Shown: piece by piece, positions 2,247 through 10,593 of the stretch | Numbering within the stretch: position 1 is the stretch's first letter | How the letters are laid out: each line of letters begins with the position of its first letter | NCBI GenBank assembly: GCA_026014495.1 | Contig: JAOZIF010000044.1 | Coordinates: forward strand, 1-11,275 | DNA length: 11,275 nucleotides | From: Candidatus Bathyarchaeum sp. | GTDB taxonomy: Archaea > Thermoproteota > Bathyarchaeia > Bathyarchaeales > Bathyarchaeaceae | Direction of reading: 5' to 3' | The notes under the pieces: model-generated | What the model was told of the DNA's origin: nothing | The model's database searches: none | Seen by the model: the letters and a program-made list of their open reading frames with translations, nothing else | Translations under genes and position numbers: made by a program

Positions 2247-2852
2247 TTGGCTTTGATTAAACGTTTGAGAGCTATAATTAAACGAATTCGATTGTACATC
2301 CAAATCACTGAGATGGGCCCAATAGCCAGAAGATACTTCGTGAAAAACGGGTTTGACGGCTCCATGACTATGCTGGGAATAATCGTAGGGGCATGGGTTG
2401 TGAATGTTACTCAACCAGAGATAATTGTAACCTCTGGTTTAGGTGCATGTTTGGCAATGGGAATCTCTGGATTATCCGGAGCATACATGACTGAAAGGGC
2501 TGAACGAAAACGAAACCTCAAGGATCTTGAATGCGCAATGGTGACAAAACTCAACGACTCTGTGATATCCGACGCCACAAGATTTGTTTCATTCTACGCA
2601 GCTGTTGTTGATGGAGGCTCACCAATTATAACCGCACTTATTTCGTTGTCGCCGTTCTTTCTTTTGCTACATGGGTTAATAGAAGTTCAAACTGCATACA
2701 CAGCATCTCTTGTAGTGACGCTGGTTACTTTGTTTATGCTAGGAATTTATCTAGGAAAAATAGCCAAAGAAAATGCGTTACTTTATGGAATACAAACACT
2801 GGTTGCTGGAGTAGCAACGATATTGATTGCACTGTTGTTAGGCGCAGTATAG
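2247..2852 (+). CDS. VIT1/CCC1-family (archaeal short form) membrane protein, putative metal transporter, ~201 aa
   Basis: 'ARRYFVKNGFDGSMTMLGIIVG' and 'AMGISGLSGAYMTERAE' match VIT1/CCC1 helices 1-2; five TM segments. Start could be TTG 2247 or ATG 2312. Confidence 0.85.
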   Translation: MALIKRLRAIIKRIRLYIQITEMGPIARRYFVKNGFDGSMTMLGIIVGAWVVNVTQPEIIVTSGLGACLAMGISGLSGAYMTERAERKRNLKDLECAMVTKLNDSVISDATRFVSFYAAVVDGGSPIITALISLSPFFLLLHGLIEVQTAYTASLVVTLVTLFMLGIYLGKIAKENALLYGIQTLVAGVATILIALLLGAV

Positions 2853-2911: not shown

Positions 2912-3208
2912 TTACATTCTAGCGGAGCTGTCTTGAGGAGTTTTTACTTCTTCAACGATTCTTTTGCCAGCAGCAACCTCGTCAATTGAGTGGATAGTAG
3001 CGCCAAATTCCTCTAGTTTCTTTTTGATGTCTTCAAAACTTATAGAGATTCCAGCAACGATAACTTTTGCGTTTTCTACTTGCTGGTCTATCTCATTTAT
3101 TATTATGTTTACGCCTTCCACGCCTTCAAGGTGACTGAGAGCCTCAGAAACTTCGACAACAGATGGTTGGTGCGGTTTTAAGACGTCTAATACAAGTCTT
3201 CGTATCAT
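2912..3208 (-). CDS. DUF211 family protein, 98 aa
   Basis: 'IRRLVLDVLKPHQP...EGVEGVNI...EID...GATIHSIDEVAAG' is the DUF211 signature. TTAAATA TATA-like box at about 3242-3249. Confidence 0.92.
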   Translation of the reverse strand: MIRRLVLDVLKPHQPSVVEVSEALSHLEGVEGVNIIINEIDQQVENAKVIVAGISISFEDIKKKLEEFGATIHSIDEVAAGKRIVEEVKTPQDSSARM

Positions 3209-3276: not shown

Positions 3277-4341
3277 TTATCGTGCGTTGCGTATCCAAAA
3301 GGATATTTGTTCAATTGTTGGATATTCTTCTTTTGAGATTTTGCCTTGTTCAACATAAATTTTGGCGATTTCGCTTACTCTTCTACTAAGCTGAATCAAA
3401 TCCTGTTCTGCCAGTTGCTTTCTCGATTTTATTCCAGCTTCTATAAGCAGCTCAGCGTTGCTTGAGTCTACTGCTGGAATCATCATCAGTTGAGCTGATG
3501 CTTGTAGGTTTTCTGCCATCTCTTTTGATATTCGAGTTTTTTCTCCGATGACATCAGGGTCAGTTGTGAGGAAGTCGCCAACAGATGTTACACCTAGTGT
3601 CCTCAACTCTTTTCCCAAAGCTGGACCTATTCCTTTTATGTCCTCAGGATTATCAAGGCTCTTCAGGTTAGCTTGGTTTGGCACCATGTTGCCCTCGATT
3701 CTTTCAAGCCTAAGTTTAATTTCTTCCAGTTCCGCTCGCTGACTCTTCAAATCAGTAGCGCCTTCTTCGCTTATTCGTTTGACTCCAAGCATGACTGCTT
3801 CTTGTCGTTTTAGGTCAGCAGAAAGTTTTTCTCCAGTTTCAGCGGTCTTGGTTTCTAGGGTAGAAACTAGGTCTGAACTGATTTTTTTGACGGCTTTTCC
3901 TTGCTTTGTCAAAAGGTCTATTGTCTCTTTTTTGTCTTCTTTGAGGTCTGAGCTGACTGTGCTGAAGAACTTCTGGTTCACTTTTCTGCCGTATTCCATT
4001 TGGTCAACTAATTCGGTTACTGAGGTTTCTTGTGCCTTTCTGAGGGCAGCTAAGTTTCCGCCTACTTTGAGCAATAGTTTAACGATTTCAGGGTCTGGAG
4101 GTTGTTTTAGGTATATGATTATGCATGTGATTCCTAGAAAGATGAACGTGGTAGTTATTGATAGCCATAGATAGATTTCTACGCTTTGGGCGCCTGCTAT
4201 GCTCCCTAGTATGTAAGGGGTTACGATGGCTGCTGCGCCCTCATTTATGAGTAAGACAGCCATTGATAAAGAAGCCATTACAGTTAGGAAAGTTGCAAAA
4301 ATAAATATCCATACAATTATTCCTCTTTTTGAAATCATCAT
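3277..4341 (-). CDS. Membrane-anchored protein: 2 TM + coiled coil + C-terminal DUF4332-like helix-hairpin-helix domain, ~354 aa
   Basis: Two hydrophobic N-terminal helices and a long heptad-rich segment, then 'IKGIGPALGKELRTLGVTSV' and 'LMMIPAVDSSNAELLIEAGIKSRKQLA' HhH repeats. Start reassigned to ATG 4341 because the AGGTG RBS (4348-4352) overlaps the GTG used by the ORF track. Confidence 0.75.
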   Translation of the reverse strand: MMISKRGIIVWIFIFATFLTVMASLSMAVLLINEGAAAIVTPYILGSIAGAQSVEIYLWLSITTTFIFLGITCIIIYLKQPPDPEIVKLLLKVGGNLAALRKAQETSVTELVDQMEYGRKVNQKFFSTVSSDLKEDKKETIDLLTKQGKAVKKISSDLVSTLETKTAETGEKLSADLKRQEAVMLGVKRISEEGATDLKSQRAELEEIKLRLERIEGNMVPNQANLKSLDNPEDIKGIGPALGKELRTLGVTSVGDFLTTDPDVIGEKTRISKEMAENLQASAQLMMIPAVDSSNAELLIEAGIKSRKQLAEQDLIQLSRRVSEIAKIYVEQGKISKEEYPTIEQISFWIRNAR

Positions 4342-4522
4342 AACGTACACCTTATTTTCTGTCTATGCGATTATCCTGAAGGGTGGTTGTGTAGTGTTTC
4401 TTCTCAATTTTAGCTTTGAAAGTGTTATGAAGACACAATATGGATTGAAAATCCAAAGGTGCACTTCAGGTTTGTTTCATTTGATTAACAGAAGACAGCA
4501 TATTTGAGAAAGAATAGAGGGG

Positions 4523-4583: not shown

Positions 4584-6092
4584 TTACAGTCCATGCTTAA
4601 GTCGTCTATAGGTGTGGTAATCCACATACTCTAAATGCTCATTATCAATCTGGTGATTAACCGTGAACTTTTGGCGCCGCTTCTTCTCCAATATCTGGCT
4701 AGTGGTCATGAACGAGTATGCATCGCTTCCAGCCCCAGATCCGTAACTGACAAGAACTATCCGCTCATCAGGTTTAGCAATATCTAAAACAGCAGCCAAG
4801 CCAATAGGTGAAGACCCAGAGTAGGCGTTTCCAAATTTGGCAACTTTTAGGCTTGGCAGGTATTGTTCTTCTTTGAATCCTAATTGTTTTGCAACCTTAA
4901 CTGGGAACCGAAGGTTTGGTTGATGGGGAACAAAGTAATCTATGTCGTCAAGGTTTAACTTTAGTTGTTCCATGAGGGTTTTACAAGATTTTATTACATG
5001 TTTAAAGTAAGCAGGCTCACCGGTGAATCGTCCACCATGTCGTGGGTATGCTTGCATGTCTCTTCTCCAAAAGTCTGGCGTGTCTGAGGTACAGGAGTAC
5101 CATCCTTCCATTTCAGCGATGACATCATGCATGCCAAAGATGAATGCTGAGCCGCCAAAGCCTACAAAATGGTCTAATTCGCCGCCCAGTTCGTTTCTGG
5201 GTGCAGCTTGAGAGTTGTCTGCTCCTATTGCCATAGCGTAGTCTGTGTTGGTTTTTGGGTAATAGACAAGTGACGCAGCATCTTTGAACATGCTTGTGGC
5301 TGCTTTGCATGCAAACTCGGTGTCGATGGCATCTACGCTTTGTAGTCCTGTTTTTTCTTCTTTGCCAAGCTTTAGAACCTGTGCTACTTTGGATGCAATT
5401 GGGTTAACAGCGTATGGATTTGATTCTGAGCCAACGTATACTTTGCCAATTAATGTTTTATCTACTCCAGAGTGAATTAACGCCAGTTTTCCAGCGTCTA
5501 CTGCTGCAGTAACTGCGTCTTCATCAATGAAGGGCACAGAGCGTTCCATATTTCCTTCTTTAATTCGGAATTTTGAGGTGTAAACTCCGTATCCAACGAT
5601 TCCGGGGGTTTCATACTCTTTTGTGGGTTTATGAATCTCATATTTTTGGTGCGGGTAGTAGCCGTCGGCAACCGTGAAAGCAAGAGAAATCGTAGGAATA
5701 ACATCGCTTTCTCCAACGGTGTGTCTTCTTCTGAATCGTGGGACAACGTTTTTTCCATCAAAACATGAAACGTCAGTTTTTCCGTCTTGTATCAAGAGGT
5801 CGGTTAGTCTTCCTGGGACTCTAGTTTTTCCATCATGAAATGATACGAGACCGTAAATGTATGAACCCATCTTGATAAACCTGTTAGTGGGTTGGTTAAC
5901 AAGAGTGGAGACTTCAAGGGTACCCTGGTCATAGAAGTAGTCTATGGTCTTCATTTTTCCGAAACTTTTTCTTCCGCAGCTTCCACAGTAGTTTTTGCCT
6001 CTGAAGTATTCTTTTCCGCACAGAGTACACTGGCTGGCTCGTAGTCTGTCTCCGATATAGGAGACCCTTCTTTCGATAGGTTCGCTGCTCAT
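4584..6092 (-). CDS. hmgB: DUF35 (Zn-ribbon + OB fold) fused to archaeal-type HMG-CoA synthase, 502 aa
   Basis: Start at ATG 6092 (GGAGA RBS, 1 nt after the thiolase stop). N-terminal CTLC-x10-CGSC Zn ribbon and 'PRFRR' OB-fold strand = DUF35. From about 5606: GIVGYG, GSESNPY (Glu223), EFACKA (Cys262), PHQPN (His390), GNAYSGS, SYGSGAGSDA = archaeal HMGCS with an intact triad. Confidence 0.92.
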   Translation of the reverse strand: MSSEPIERRVSYIGDRLRASQCTLCGKEYFRGKNYCGSCGRKSFGKMKTIDYFYDQGTLEVSTLVNQPTNRFIKMGSYIYGLVSFHDGKTRVPGRLTDLLIQDGKTDVSCFDGKNVVPRFRRRHTVGESDVIPTISLAFTVADGYYPHQKYEIHKPTKEYETPGIVGYGVYTSKFRIKEGNMERSVPFIDEDAVTAAVDAGKLALIHSGVDKTLIGKVYVGSESNPYAVNPIASKVAQVLKLGKEEKTGLQSVDAIDTEFACKAATSMFKDAASLVYYPKTNTDYAMAIGADNSQAAPRNELGGELDHFVGFGGSAFIFGMHDVIAEMEGWYSCTSDTPDFWRRDMQAYPRHGGRFTGEPAYFKHVIKSCKTLMEQLKLNLDDIDYFVPHQPNLRFPVKVAKQLGFKEEQYLPSLKVAKFGNAYSGSSPIGLAAVLDIAKPDERIVLVSYGSGAGSDAYSFMTTSQILEKKRRQKFTVNHQIDNEHLEYVDYHTYRRLKHGL

Positions 6093-6093
6093 T

Positions 6094-7296
6094 TTAGTTT
6101 CTCCCCAGAATGTGTATGTATGATTTTGTGCCAAAGCCTTCTAACTCTGAAACACAACCCAGTTTAGGAGCTTCTCCGTCCAAGTGGACTTGTCGGCTAT
6201 CAGCTTTTCCTTGTAACTGTTTGAAAATTTCAAAGATTTGTGCGCCGCCAGTTGCACCTAATGGATTTCCGTCGGCTTTGAGGCCTCCATTCAAGTTTAC
6301 ATAGAGCTTTCTGCCGCCTATTTCGTAGAAGCCCTGATAGTCTTCGCAGCTTTTGTGTATGTCAAGCCATGATTTTCCTCTTTTACAAAAGCCTAAGTCT
6401 TCTAGAGATAGCATCTCAAGTAGTGTTGATTGGTCATAGAGTTCAGCTATTTGAATTTCGGTTAAGTCAACGTTAGCCTGTTTGAGGGCTGTTTGCATGG
6501 CTAAGGTTGTTGCTACAAATCCTGTTCTGTCTTCTCGTGAGGGAAATGTGATGTAGTCAGTGGCTGAAGAGGAAGCCAAGACGTAAACAGGAATATCGGA
6601 GCATTTTTTGGCGGCTTTTGGGCTTGCCAGAATTAAAGCTGATGCGCCGTCAGAAACTGGGGCAAAGTCGAAGAGCCCCAATGATTTGCAATGATTACCC
6701 CGCGCTTTTATGACTTGCTCGACGGTTATTGGGTTCTTGTATTGGGCTTGGGGGTTTTTTGTGGCGTTTTTGTGGTTTTTTACTGATATTTGGGCAAGTG
6801 CAGTGTAAAGTTTTTCGAGTTGTTTTCCTTTGATGCCATATTTTTTGGCGTATCCGTTGAGTAGTAGTTCATGGTTTGCTTCGGGTGTGCAGCCTGCGTA
6901 GTAGCTCCATGGGTCTTCTAGGAGCATTAGGTCGTCTCTGATTTTGTCCCAGCGGTCAGTCATTTTTTCCATTCCGCCAACTAGGACGAGGTCATATTTT
7001 CCTGATTGAATTGCGTGGCAGGCATTTAGTAGTGCGGAGCTAAATGATCTGGTTTTTTCCATGGGGACATGAAGTTCTAGGAGTTCAGAGAAGAATCCTT
7101 CTTCTAGCCCGATTTTGTTTGTGACTTGGAGAAAATAGTCGGAAAGGTAGCAGGCATTCAAGTCTTTTCGTGTTATGCCTGCAGAGTCTAGTGCTTGGAG
7201 TCCAGCTTCTTCGATTAGAGATTCGGGGTCTCTTTCGTAGTGTTCTCCAAATTTTGTCCTGCCGACTCCTATGATGGCAGGGTTTTGTGAGTTCAT
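6094..7296 (-). CDS. Thiolase-fold protein (archaeal/SCP2-type acetyl-CoA acetyltransferase homolog) lacking canonical catalytic residues, 400 aa
   Basis: AIIGVGRTKFG, GGMEKM, NHKNATKNP.AQ, APVSDGASALIL, EDLGFC and NLNGGLKA.G.PLGATG are thiolase-family motifs. The CxS nucleophile, HDCF and GHP motifs read RSFSS, YDQS and GNP. Confidence 0.9.
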   Translation of the reverse strand: MNSQNPAIIGVGRTKFGEHYERDPESLIEEAGLQALDSAGITRKDLNACYLSDYFLQVTNKIGLEEGFFSELLELHVPMEKTRSFSSALLNACHAIQSGKYDLVLVGGMEKMTDRWDKIRDDLMLLEDPWSYYAGCTPEANHELLLNGYAKKYGIKGKQLEKLYTALAQISVKNHKNATKNPQAQYKNPITVEQVIKARGNHCKSLGLFDFAPVSDGASALILASPKAAKKCSDIPVYVLASSSATDYITFPSREDRTGFVATTLAMQTALKQANVDLTEIQIAELYDQSTLLEMLSLEDLGFCKRGKSWLDIHKSCEDYQGFYEIGGRKLYVNLNGGLKADGNPLGATGGAQIFEIFKQLQGKADSRQVHLDGEAPKLGCVSELEGFGTKSYIHILGRN

Positions 7297-7483: not shown

Positions 7484-7924
7484 TTGGTGGCGTTTGTGTT
7501 GGCTACTCAATTTGCTGCCCTCATTATGGATACGTTGCTTGAGCAAACAGGGTTAGAGGACATTATTTTGTCCATAATTTCGTTTGTCATAATCTTTGCT
7601 ATCATGACCGTGATTTTTTATGTGTCAGGTAATGCCGTGGTTGGAAGAAAGAGGGTCAGCTTAAAGGATGCTTTTTCAATTTCTGTTCTTGGAACTCTTG
7701 TTTTGATTGTGTGTCTTTCGGTTTTTAGTTTAGAACTCGCATTGCTGATGTCGGTTATTGCATGGCTGCTTTTAGTCAAGTACTACTATGAAACAGGTTT
7801 TGTGGGTGCATTTGCTGTAGGCATAACTTCTGCGTTTGTTTCACTTGTTGTTTTAGAGGTTTTAAGTTGGGTTTTGGGTATTCCGCTGGTTTTTGATTGG
7901 CTGTCTGTCTTTGTTATGGGCTAA
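7484..7924 (+). CDS. Hypothetical integral membrane protein, 4-5 TM (start TTG 7484 or ATG 7526)
   Basis: Continuous hydrophobic helices with short charged loops (VVGRKRVSLKDAF; YYETGF). It fills the gap between divergent and convergent genes. No family recognised. Confidence 0.8.
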   Translation: MVAFVLATQFAALIMDTLLEQTGLEDIILSIISFVIIFAIMTVIFYVSGNAVVGRKRVSLKDAFSISVLGTLVLIVCLSVFSLELALLMSVIAWLLLVKYYYETGFVGAFAVGITSAFVSLVVLEVLSWVLGIPLVFDWLSVFVMG

Positions 7925-7947
7925 TTATGCTCCAAGCGGAGCTTGTG

Positions 7948-8196
7948 TTATTGTGTTTTTTGTTTGAATTGCTCGGTTATTATCATGGTTGTTGTAAGGA
8001 AAACGTCAGGTAGTACTCGAAGTTTTTCTGTTAAGAATTTGTCCATGTCTGAGATGTCTTTGATGTTTATTTTTATTACAGCATCGTTTTCTCCGATGAC
8101 AAGGTTTGCTTCGATTACTTCTTTGAATTCTGAGATTTGTTTTAGAAATTCTCTTTCTGAGCCTGATTTTACTGTGACTAAAATGTATGCAAGCAA
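7948..8196 (-). CDS. Stand-alone Lrp/AsnC ligand-binding (RAM) domain protein, 82 aa
   Basis: 'LAYILVTVKSGSE...EVIEANLVIGENDAVIKI...LRVLPDVFLTTTMI' fits the AsnC C-terminal domain; no HTH. TTG start with GGTGA RBS at 8203-8207. Confidence 0.9.
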   Translation of the reverse strand: MLAYILVTVKSGSEREFLKQISEFKEVIEANLVIGENDAVIKINIKDISDMDKFLTEKLRVLPDVFLTTTMIITEQFKQKTQ

Positions 8197-8913: not shown

Positions 8914-8945
8914 TTTTCAACAATCTTCTGCTATTAGTCTCCTAA
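8914..8945 (+). repeat. Direct repeat copy 2 (32 bp), overlapping the stop codon of the beta-helix gene
   Basis: TTTTCAACAATCTTCTGCTATTAGTCTCCTAA; 615 bp from copy 1. Confidence 0.9.
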
Positions 8946-10495
8946 TATGTGCGGTGTTTTTTGGTTAGTTTTTGTTTGCAGAGTGTTATTGCTAGAGTTG
9001 TTGTGATGAGTATGGGCAGTATTATCCATGATTGGAATTCTGGGATTGTGGTGGGTTGTGTGAGTGGGTGGTTGTCTTGGTTGTTTTCGTTAATGATGTA
9101 GGGTCCTGTGCCGTTGTAGTTGCTCCAGTAGTTTCCTGTTGTGCCGTTGTCCCATCGGTCTGTTGCGGGTTCCATGTCGGGTAGTGTTCCTGCAAGTGGG
9201 TCGTTGGTGTAGGTTGCTTGTTGGGTGTTGTTGAAGTTGTTTTGGTAGATTGTGTTGTTGGAAAAAACTGGAATTGTGTAATCGAGTATTATGCCGTAGT
9301 CGCTGTTTTGTTGTATTGTGTTGCCAACGATTGTGTTGTTAAATGCAGTGTCGAGGTTTATGCCGTTTTGGTTGTTTGTTACGGTGTTGGCGTGGACGGT
9401 GTTGTCATTTGATTCGTGTCCCCAGAGTTTTATGCCGTCTTGTGTGTTTTGTGTTACTGTGTTTTCGGAGATGATGGCTCTTCTGGAGTCGTAGAATAGT
9501 ATGCCGCTTTGTTGGTTGCCTGTTACGGTGTTTGCTGTGACTAGTGTGTGTTCAGAGTTCCACGAATTAATGCCGTCTTTGTTGTTTGCTGTTATGATGT
9601 TTTTGGATATTGTGTTGTTGCTGCAGATTTCGTATGGCGCAAAGAGCACGATGCCGTAGTCGTTGTTTGTGATGTGGTTGTTTGTTATCAAGCAGTTGCT
9701 TGTTGCGACTAGAAGTATGCCTTGGCTGTTTTGGGTTAGTGTTTGGTTTTGGACGGTTATGTTTGTGCAGTTAACTAGAGCCACATATGCGGCGTTTGAG
9801 GGCACGGTTTTGTCTTTTTGGTTGACCCAGTATACGATTGGTTTGCCGTTTATTGTGTTTGAGGTGTCGATGTCGTTGGTGAAGTGTGTCATTTGAACTG
9901 ACGTTTCGCAGTTGACCCACAGGTTGTATGTGTTGTCGATTAGCTGGTTGTCCCTGAAAGTGTTGTCTGGTGAGTGGTTGATGTAAACGCCGTAGGTGTT
10001 GTTTGCGAACGTGTTGCCCAAAATGTTGTTGCCGTCTGACATCATGCCAAGGGTTATTCCATGGTTGTTGTCGGTTAGGGTGTTTGCAGAAACTGTGATG
10101 CCACTGCAGCCATCCATTGAGTTTCCGTAGGTGAATTGTATGCCATGGCTGAAGTTTTTGATGTGCAGGTTCTTTATTTCTACGTTGTTTAGCTCTTGGA
10201 GCCAGATGCCTGTGAGGGTTCCGTTTCCTTGAAGTGTGTAGCCTGCCCCGTCAACAACTATGTTGTTACAAAAGATTACGATGCTTCCTGTTATGTCTGC
10301 CGTGAACGTGTAGGTGCTGCCGCTACGCTGAATATGTTCTGTCCCTGTCACGTCTCCTGTTGCGGTGATTTCGATTGTGTGCTCGGGAACTGAGGCAGGA
10401 AAAAAGTTGGCAGAAACCAAGCAAACAGACTGCAAGTTAACAAATAACAAAAGGAGTATTGAAAGTATAATAAATGAAGAGAATAGTTTCTTCAT
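8942..10495 (-). CDS. Secreted right-handed parallel beta-helix (NosD/CASH-like) surface protein with PEF-CTERM-like sorting tail, ~517 aa
   Basis: Start at ATG 10495 gives a signal peptide MKKLFSSFIILSILLLLFVNLQSVCLVSA. Also 'IVVDGAGYTLQG', many N.I..N..GI repeats, 'WDNGTTGNYWSNY...DNHPL', and C-terminal IPEF + TM + basic tail. Numerous N-glycosylation sequons. Confidence 0.9.
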   Translation of the reverse strand: MKKLFSSFIILSILLLLFVNLQSVCLVSANFFPASVPEHTIEITATGDVTGTEHIQRSGSTYTFTADITGSIVIFCNNIVVDGAGYTLQGNGTLTGIWLQELNNVEIKNLHIKNFSHGIQFTYGNSMDGCSGITVSANTLTDNNHGITLGMMSDGNNILGNTFANNTYGVYINHSPDNTFRDNQLIDNTYNLWVNCETSVQMTHFTNDIDTSNTINGKPIVYWVNQKDKTVPSNAAYVALVNCTNITVQNQTLTQNSQGILLVATSNCLITNNHITNNDYGIVLFAPYEICSNNTISKNIITANNKDGINSWNSEHTLVTANTVTGNQQSGILFYDSRRAIISENTVTQNTQDGIKLWGHESNDNTVHANTVTNNQNGINLDTAFNNTIVGNTIQQNSDYGIILDYTIPVFSNNTIYQNNFNNTQQATYTNDPLAGTLPDMEPATDRWDNGTTGNYWSNYNGTGPYIINENNQDNHPLTQPTTIPEFQSWIILPILITTTLAITLCKQKLTKKHRTY

Positions 10496-10515
10496 GTTAA
10501 ACGCCTTAACTAACC

Positions 10516-10531
10516 TATTGTGCACACAATA
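10516..10531. promoter_or_regulatory. Palindromic candidate operator TATTGTG-CA-CACAATA upstream of the beta-helix gene
   Basis: Perfect 7-2-7 inverted repeat between a TTTTAT TATA-like box (about 10536-10541, minus strand) and ATG 10495. Confidence 0.5.
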
Positions 10532-10593
10532 ACCCATAAAACATTTTTTGTAAAGGTTTCTTGACCAAAAAACGCAAACACAACAAAACACTA

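Follow-up and report, generated by a model that had tools for sequence, protein, structure and literature searches.

The window analyzed here, a stretch of 11,275 nucleotides, makes up one entire contig (C170, 11.3 kb) in a Bathyarchaeia genome assembly of 2.19 Mb and 93% completeness. Among named relatives, Candidatus Bathyarchaeum tardum is the nearest, with 85% identity in the thiolase gene considered below. Positions 4584–7296 are filled by two genes on the minus strand: gene A (6094..7296), encoding a thiolase-like protein of 400 amino acids (P0001), and gene B (4584..6092), encoding a 502-aa protein in which a DUF35 domain is fused to 3-hydroxy-3-methylglutaryl-CoA (HMG-CoA) synthase (HMGCS). 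Direct reading of the gene junction (6090..6106, minus strand) gave a GGGGAG sequence at 6106–6101, the stop codon TAA of gene A at 6096–6094 and, after 1 nt, the ATG of gene B at 6092–6090. This agrees with the translationally coupled two-gene operon proposed in the first-pass annotation of the window. Both genes also lay where that annotation had placed them, but the start of gene B was moved from the listed TTG at 6134 to the ATG at 6092–6090, because the N-terminus MSSEPIERR was invariant in 26 orthologues.

Thiolase N- and C-terminal domains were recognized in P0001 by Pfam and NCBIfam, yet its scores remained under every equivalog cut-off. The best solved relative was the thiolase of the Methanothermococcus thermolithotrophicus complex (6esq_A, E 1e-46). 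An AlphaFold2 model of P0001 had a pLDDT of 92.5 and superposed best on 6et9_C, with a TM score of 0.89–0.92 and a root-mean-square deviation of 2.1 Å. The catalytic residues expected of this fold were missing. In the former nucleophile loop (residues 79–89, M-E-K-T-R-S-F-S-S-A-L; 7030..7062, minus strand), a deletion of four residues has taken out E-A-A-C with the catalytic Cys, so that T-R83-S-F-S-S-A remains (R83 codon, 7048–7050). In the family alignment, the HDCF loop was replaced by Y287-D-Q-S (6427..6438), the His of the GHP motif by N344 (G-N344-P; 6265..6267), and the HNxGG C-terminal catalytic loop by E384-L-E-G-F-G-T-K (6124..6147), all on the minus strand. The earlier description of a thiolase devoid of its catalytic residues thus held at each of these sites.

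The replacements are essentially invariant: among 88 family members, R83, Q289, S290 and N344 were each found in 86 and Y287 in 85, while E384 and E386 were kept in 84–85. All 31 catalytically intact relatives had Cys in the deleted columns and retained His, Cys, Phe, His, Asn and Gly where P0001 carries its other replacements. The motifs CxS, HDxF and GHx define archaeal acetyl-CoA acetyltransferases (ACATs), and the archaeal complex cannot do without His284 of HDxF, since the H284A substitution abolishes HMG-CoA formation (PMC12960953). Neither the Cys of CxS, nor the His and Cys of the HDxF loop, nor the His of GHx, which characterize the thiolase of the 6ESQ-type complex, were present in P0001. 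The motifs were checked residue by residue because the over-cut-off flag of NF004720 was unable to separate intact from degenerate thiolases: Cys-less copies from Thermoplasmata pass it. The PDB entry 4YZO (Sulfolobus tokodaii ST0096, “thiolase-like protein”), matching P0001 with an E value of 1e-34, has Ser aligned with the nucleophile Cys and keeps GHP; it is possibly a further Cys-less thiolase of archaea.

The product of gene B consists of two parts. Residues 176–502 (4584..5567, minus strand, stop codon included) are an archaeal HMGCS, with 363 bits against NF003274 (cut-off 244) and an E value of 2.5e-77 against 6esq_I; the score with TIGR00748 was slightly under the cut-off (333 vs. 353). 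The catalytic tetrad—E223 (5424–5426), C262 (5307–5309), H390 (4923–4925) and N422 (4827–4829)—was invariant. Residues 1–175, comprising the DUF35 domain and a linker (5568..6092, minus strand), were not called as DUF35 by Pfam alone, which gave only a weak zf-ChsH2 match (E 0.026), and a family profile was required: the profile of 26 orthologues matched the DUF35 subunit 6esq_E with an E value of 3e-8 over the Zn ribbon and the start of the oligonucleotide/oligosaccharide-binding (OB) fold. The four Zn-ribbon cysteines C22, C25, C36 and C39 (about 5976–6029, minus strand) were invariant among orthologues. The fusion of DUF35 with an HMGCS of intact tetrad, as described by the first-pass annotation, was thus supported.

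HMG-CoA synthase catalyzes the first committed step of membrane-lipid synthesis. We failed to find a second HMGCS or an NphT7-like KAS III in the same genome, where searches with PF08541 and P0002 matched the window gene only. One HMG-CoA reductase was encoded on another contig. A look for further HMGCS and HMG-CoA reductase copies had been recommended by the first-pass annotation; since the window gene was the sole HMGCS/KAS-III-type gene found and is accompanied by one HMG-CoA reductase, the fusion protein is a housekeeping enzyme of the mevalonate pathway.

Orthologues of P0001 with 68–87% identity and an intact 400-aa frame were found in 80 Bathyarchaeia genomes. In all 77 Bathyarchaeia loci where the contig reached far enough, the thiolase-like gene was immediately followed by the DUF35::HMGCS gene. 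The pair, whose conservation across Bathyarchaeia the first-pass annotation had proposed to check, is thus not peculiar to this locus, being a trait found across the sampled Bathyarchaeia loci. The pairwise ratio of nonsynonymous to synonymous substitution rates (dN/dS) was 0.077 for the thiolase-like gene (191 pairs) and 0.059 for the fusion gene, and 129 of the 400 positions of P0001 were at least 95% conserved. The thiolase-like protein is maintained under strong purifying selection and is not decaying.

Some genomes differed in their HMGCS content. Three genomes of family f3 from the taxonomic order of the window (G021, G085 and G093; 95–98% complete) yielded nothing similar to the HMGCS of the fusion at a threshold of E 1e-10, and their only thiolase was similar to the intact one encoded on contig C58 of the genome studied here. 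In the phylum sample, family f12 comprises 43 mostly closed genomes of about 1.6 Mb, and archaeal-type HMGCS was matched at the same threshold in none of them; these presumably use a different HMGCS type.

The origin of the pair can be followed through existing lineages. Other Thermoproteota (L103, L104, L106) encode an intact thiolase in the canonical gene order HMGCS, thiolase, DUF35, as does L149, a lineage inside the taxonomic order of the window. Candidatus Bathyarchaeota archaeon B24 and its relatives (L088–L096) share the gene order and the fusion of our pair, a thiolase gene followed by DUF35::HMGCS, but their thiolase retains CAS, HDCF, GHP and HNIGG. In the maximum-likelihood tree, the degenerate thiolases grouped as a single clade with an SH-aLRT of 100 and a long stem (0.69); this clade was sister to the B24-type thiolases with a support of 100 for the joint clade. 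The intact C58-like thiolases of genomes with the degenerate type fell elsewhere, among archaeal and bacterial thiolases. Since the degenerate clade is sister to intact thiolases that stand beside the same fusion, the fusion came first and was followed by a single loss of catalysis; the degenerate thiolase has a single origin from an intact, fusion-associated one. The B24-type fusions have themselves lost the fourth Zn-ribbon Cys (C-x2-C ... C-x-V-E-G-R, residues about 20–41), while the lineages with the degenerate thiolase keep all four.

Loss of the nucleophile was not restricted to Bathyarchaeia: when the 138 full-length representatives of 50% clusters nearest to P0001 were compared, the Cys was missing in 46. 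In Thermoplasmata, where the operon has the order HMGCS, thiolase, DUF35, a Cys-less thiolase was found in about 65 of 80 loci, including those of Thermoplasma and Ferroplasma metagenome-assembled genomes and of a Thermogymnomonas isolate. As in our pair, both the Cys and the GHP His of the operon thiolase were lost, and intact thiolase/DUF35 pairs were encoded away from the operon. These findings cover the loci L155–L235, L236, L242 and L246. However, the three genes are separate, without a fusion, and the replacements are different: T, S, G or N for the Cys, HDSY or NDSY for HDCF, and GNP, GDP or GYP for GHP. The loss in Thermoplasmata is independent of that in Bathyarchaeia, that is, convergent. 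Two further degenerate operon thiolases were found in other Thermoproteota (L105 and L107). Taken with the Thermoplasmata and Bathyarchaeia cases, these indicate that the thiolase residing with HMGCS has lost catalysis several times.

The first-pass annotation had reasoned that acetoacetyl-CoA must come from elsewhere and had proposed a search for other active thiolases in the genome. Two were found, each with a complete set of catalytic residues and followed by its own DUF35 gene. One pair was located on contig C58 (thiolase, C58:6501-7673; DUF35, 7676-8074). The other, on contig C57, lay inside a cluster of the beta-oxidation type with 3-hydroxyacyl-CoA dehydrogenase, enoyl-CoA hydratase and acyl-CoA dehydrogenase. 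Orthologues of the C58 thiolase, always followed by DUF35, were present in about 30 of the 41 genomes of the window's taxonomic order; their identities (66–84%) are similar to those of P0001. Intact thiolase/DUF35 pairs, with motifs checked, were also found in 5/5 genomes with the degenerate type from four other families. By contrast, exactly one thiolase-fold gene, the intact one beside the fusion, was encoded in each of the 14 B24-type genomes searched. This complementary distribution is the strongest support for a catalytically lost partner with catalysis provided in trans. One exception to the pattern is G045, whose only thiolase besides the degenerate one is of a bacterial type.

All three components of the archaeal thiolase/HMGCS/DUF35 complex (6ESQ type), which had been recognized from the window, are indeed present as modules of two coupled genes, and that complex is the closest solved relative for each of them. 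The genes are adjacent, and both the E-C-H-N tetrad and the four-Cys Zn ribbon of DUF35 are intact. The differences concern the gene order, since the 6ESQ-type operon runs HMGCS, thiolase, DUF35, the fusion of DUF35 to the N-terminus of HMGCS, and the thiolase deprived of Cys, HDCF and GHP. The pair is a variant of a known complex and not a new kind of system.

Other systems with a degenerate thiolase-fold member were compared as well. In the Pseudomonas fluorescens ACAT/HMGS-DUF35 complex, the HMGS lacks E-C-H-N, and the ACAT is the catalyst (PMC12960953). This complex, PhlACB and MucABC are likewise tripartite with one of two thiolase-fold subunits inactive, and an HMGS-DUF35 fusion exists among them, but they are bacterial, stand outside the mevalonate pathway and are a mirror image of our pair, where the HMGS is intact and the ACAT has lost its Cys. 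The steroid aldolases Ltp2 and Sal, which have DUF35 partners (Ltp2-ChsH2 and Sal-Shy), and the SCP2-thiolase-like protein of T. brucei (TbSLP) share with P0001 the thiolase fold without the nucleophile Cys and the replacement of the HDCF-loop His by Tyr. They are, however, distant in sequence (6ok1, E 1e-14; 5ab4, E 3e-6), and P0001 arose independently, inside archaeal ACATs. Tyr287 is present, but P0001 has Asn344 in place of Tyr344, the other catalytic residue of Ltp2, and Gln289 in place of Cys304, which has this role in Sal. Membership of P0001 in the Ltp2/Sal aldolases was thus ruled out by residues and phylogeny.

We failed to find in the literature searched a description of a degenerate thiolase beside an intact, DUF35-fused HMGCS. 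The view that this combination is undescribed therefore stands for that literature only; the closest published case is its bacterial mirror image in Pseudomonas fluorescens, which appeared in 2026 (PMC12960953).

Considering these data together, P0001 is probably a pseudoenzyme that serves as a structural and CoA-site partner of HMGCS, with acetoacetyl-CoA made in trans. The two proteins would form a variant archaeal thiolase/HMGCS/DUF35 complex with HMG-CoA synthase as its only catalytic member. By itself, archaeal HMGS is reported to lack activity and ACAT to be insoluble (PMC12960953, citing Voegeli 2018), and a catalytically lost partner would be kept for this reason: the synthase would need a thiolase-fold subunit together with DUF35 for a shared CoA-binding site, for activity or for solubility. 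The former active site of P0001 may be filled or re-shaped by the conserved charged and polar residues. Acetoacetyl-CoA would be produced by a separate intact thiolase/DUF35 pair, here those of C58 and C57, and would reach the HMGCS site as a free substrate. Channelling from the resident thiolase is not expected because the Cys, HDCF and GHP are gone, DUF35 is fused and the gene order is changed.

Several observations weigh against this reading. Conservation is higher in the four remodelled loops than elsewhere in P0001, with 35 of 60 vs. 94 of 340 positions at least 95% conserved (p = 8e-6), and a pure scaffold has no obvious need for such hyper-conserved loops. The loop domain 113–146, rewritten and fixed as well, is left unexplained. 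Abandoning channelling for an endergonic step also calls for an explanation. The replacement of the HDCF-loop His by Tyr occurs in the Cys-less aldolases Ltp2 and Sal and in TbSLP too (PMC12329534). Two genomes, G053 (97% complete) and G148 (95%), encoded the degenerate pair and no other thiolase-fold gene detectable with three profiles; no clear 3-hydroxyacyl-CoA dehydrogenase was seen in them either (G053:C71, L152; G148:C2, L151). Finally, the AlphaFold2 model of the fusion protein, built from 26 close homologues, had a pLDDT of 38.7, and its domain arrangement was unreadable.

An alternative that we consider possible, if tentative, is that the thiolase-fold subunit has acquired a new role, its remodelled pocket (R83, S131, P138, Y287, Q289, S290, N344, E384, E386 and K391) binding a ligand or performing Cys-independent acyl-CoA chemistry. 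CoA, acetyl-CoA, acetoacetyl-CoA or HMG-CoA might be bound there, for regulation or for substrate parking; with the same tentative standing, the pocket might carry out a Tyr-based aldol or retro-aldol reaction, as in Ltp2 and Sal, or a decarboxylation, which TbSLP shows weakly. No part of P0001 is more conserved than the remodelled loops, which are invariant; the loop domain 113–146 is also rewritten and conserved, and a long stem branch followed by slow evolution is what a change of function would be expected to leave. The YDxx motif has counterparts in Ltp2, Sal and TbSLP (YDHF, YDCY and YDCF), none of which has the nucleophile; the first two work with a DUF35 partner. Descent from Ltp2 or Sal is nevertheless contradicted by the far weaker match (6ok1, E 1e-14, vs. 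6esq, 1e-46) and by the tree, which puts P0001 inside archaeal ACATs, and neither the second Tyr of Ltp2 nor the Cys of Sal is retained. The new charges, two positive and two negative, would fit a salt-bridge plug as well as catalysis. The quite different replacements in Thermoplasmata (T/S, HDSY, GNP/GDP/GYP) argue against one common new chemistry, and the gene neighbours suggest no substrate.

A more specific form of repurposing, which we hold to be rather unlikely, is that P0001 is no passive scaffold but uses its invariant Arg/Tyr/Gln/Asn/Glu/Glu/Lys pocket to bind a CoA ester or to transform it. It could hold HMG-CoA or acetoacetyl-CoA by the carboxylate or keto group, gate access to HMGCS or support Tyr-based aldol-type chemistry. 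Were this true, the entry into the mevalonate pathway in Bathyarchaeia would differ from the published channelling model, and in genomes without another thiolase the C4 unit might come from a source other than a thiolase.

It is improbable that the complex is still self-sufficient, making both acetoacetyl-CoA and HMG-CoA from acetyl-CoA alone via a relocated nucleophile or an unrecognised mechanism. Two cysteines are conserved within the window's taxonomic order (C93 in 73 of 78 and C381 in 75 of 78 sequences), and G053 and G148 lack another thiolase-fold gene. However, C93 is replaced by Tyr and C381 by Leu in other branches of the degenerate clade (L097–L102), so that neither is a family-wide nucleophile, and the acid/base Cys and both His are gone as well. 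Moreover, the 14/14 relatives with an intact resident thiolase need no second one, almost all genomes with the degenerate type keep one, and the exceptions G053 and G148 are 3–5% incomplete. A relocated Cys nucleophile was therefore rejected as unlikely, not being kept across the clade.

A decaying pseudogene or an assembly artefact, which the loss of every catalytic residue might suggest, has a negligible probability and is refuted by synteny, conservation and dN/dS: the frame is intact in 80 genomes under a dN/dS of 0.077, 129/400 positions are at least 95% conserved, the AlphaFold2 model is confident and the coupled gene arrangement is kept.

The thiolase/HMGCS/DUF35 complex has been described as the way in which archaea in general cope with the endergonic start of isoprenoid-lipid synthesis. 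In the sampled Bathyarchaeia lineages, and independently in Thermoplasmata, its resident thiolase is catalytically gutted yet strictly conserved. Two outcomes are conceivable: HMGCS can dispense with channelling and simply requires a partner of thiolase shape, or this partner has taken on another role. Each would matter for how membranes are made in abundant sediment archaea, for the rise of pseudoenzymes in metabolic complexes and for the design of engineered mevalonate modules. The series from the canonical operon through the fusion with an intact thiolase to the fusion with a degenerate one offers natural controls.

The genes neighbouring the pair in the window showed no evident operon link to it and gave no metabolic context or hint of a substrate. 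They encode a VIT1-family transporter (2247–2852, plus strand), a DUF211 protein (2912–3208, minus strand) and a DUF4332/helix-hairpin-helix protein (3277–4350, minus strand). At 8942–10591 on the minus strand, a NosD/right-handed beta-helix protein of 549 aa, rich in Asn and Thr, was encoded. It has a signal peptide at the N-terminus and a membrane anchor at the C-terminus and is likely to be a surface protein. The strong GC and AT skew at 9–10 kb is accounted for by this gene.

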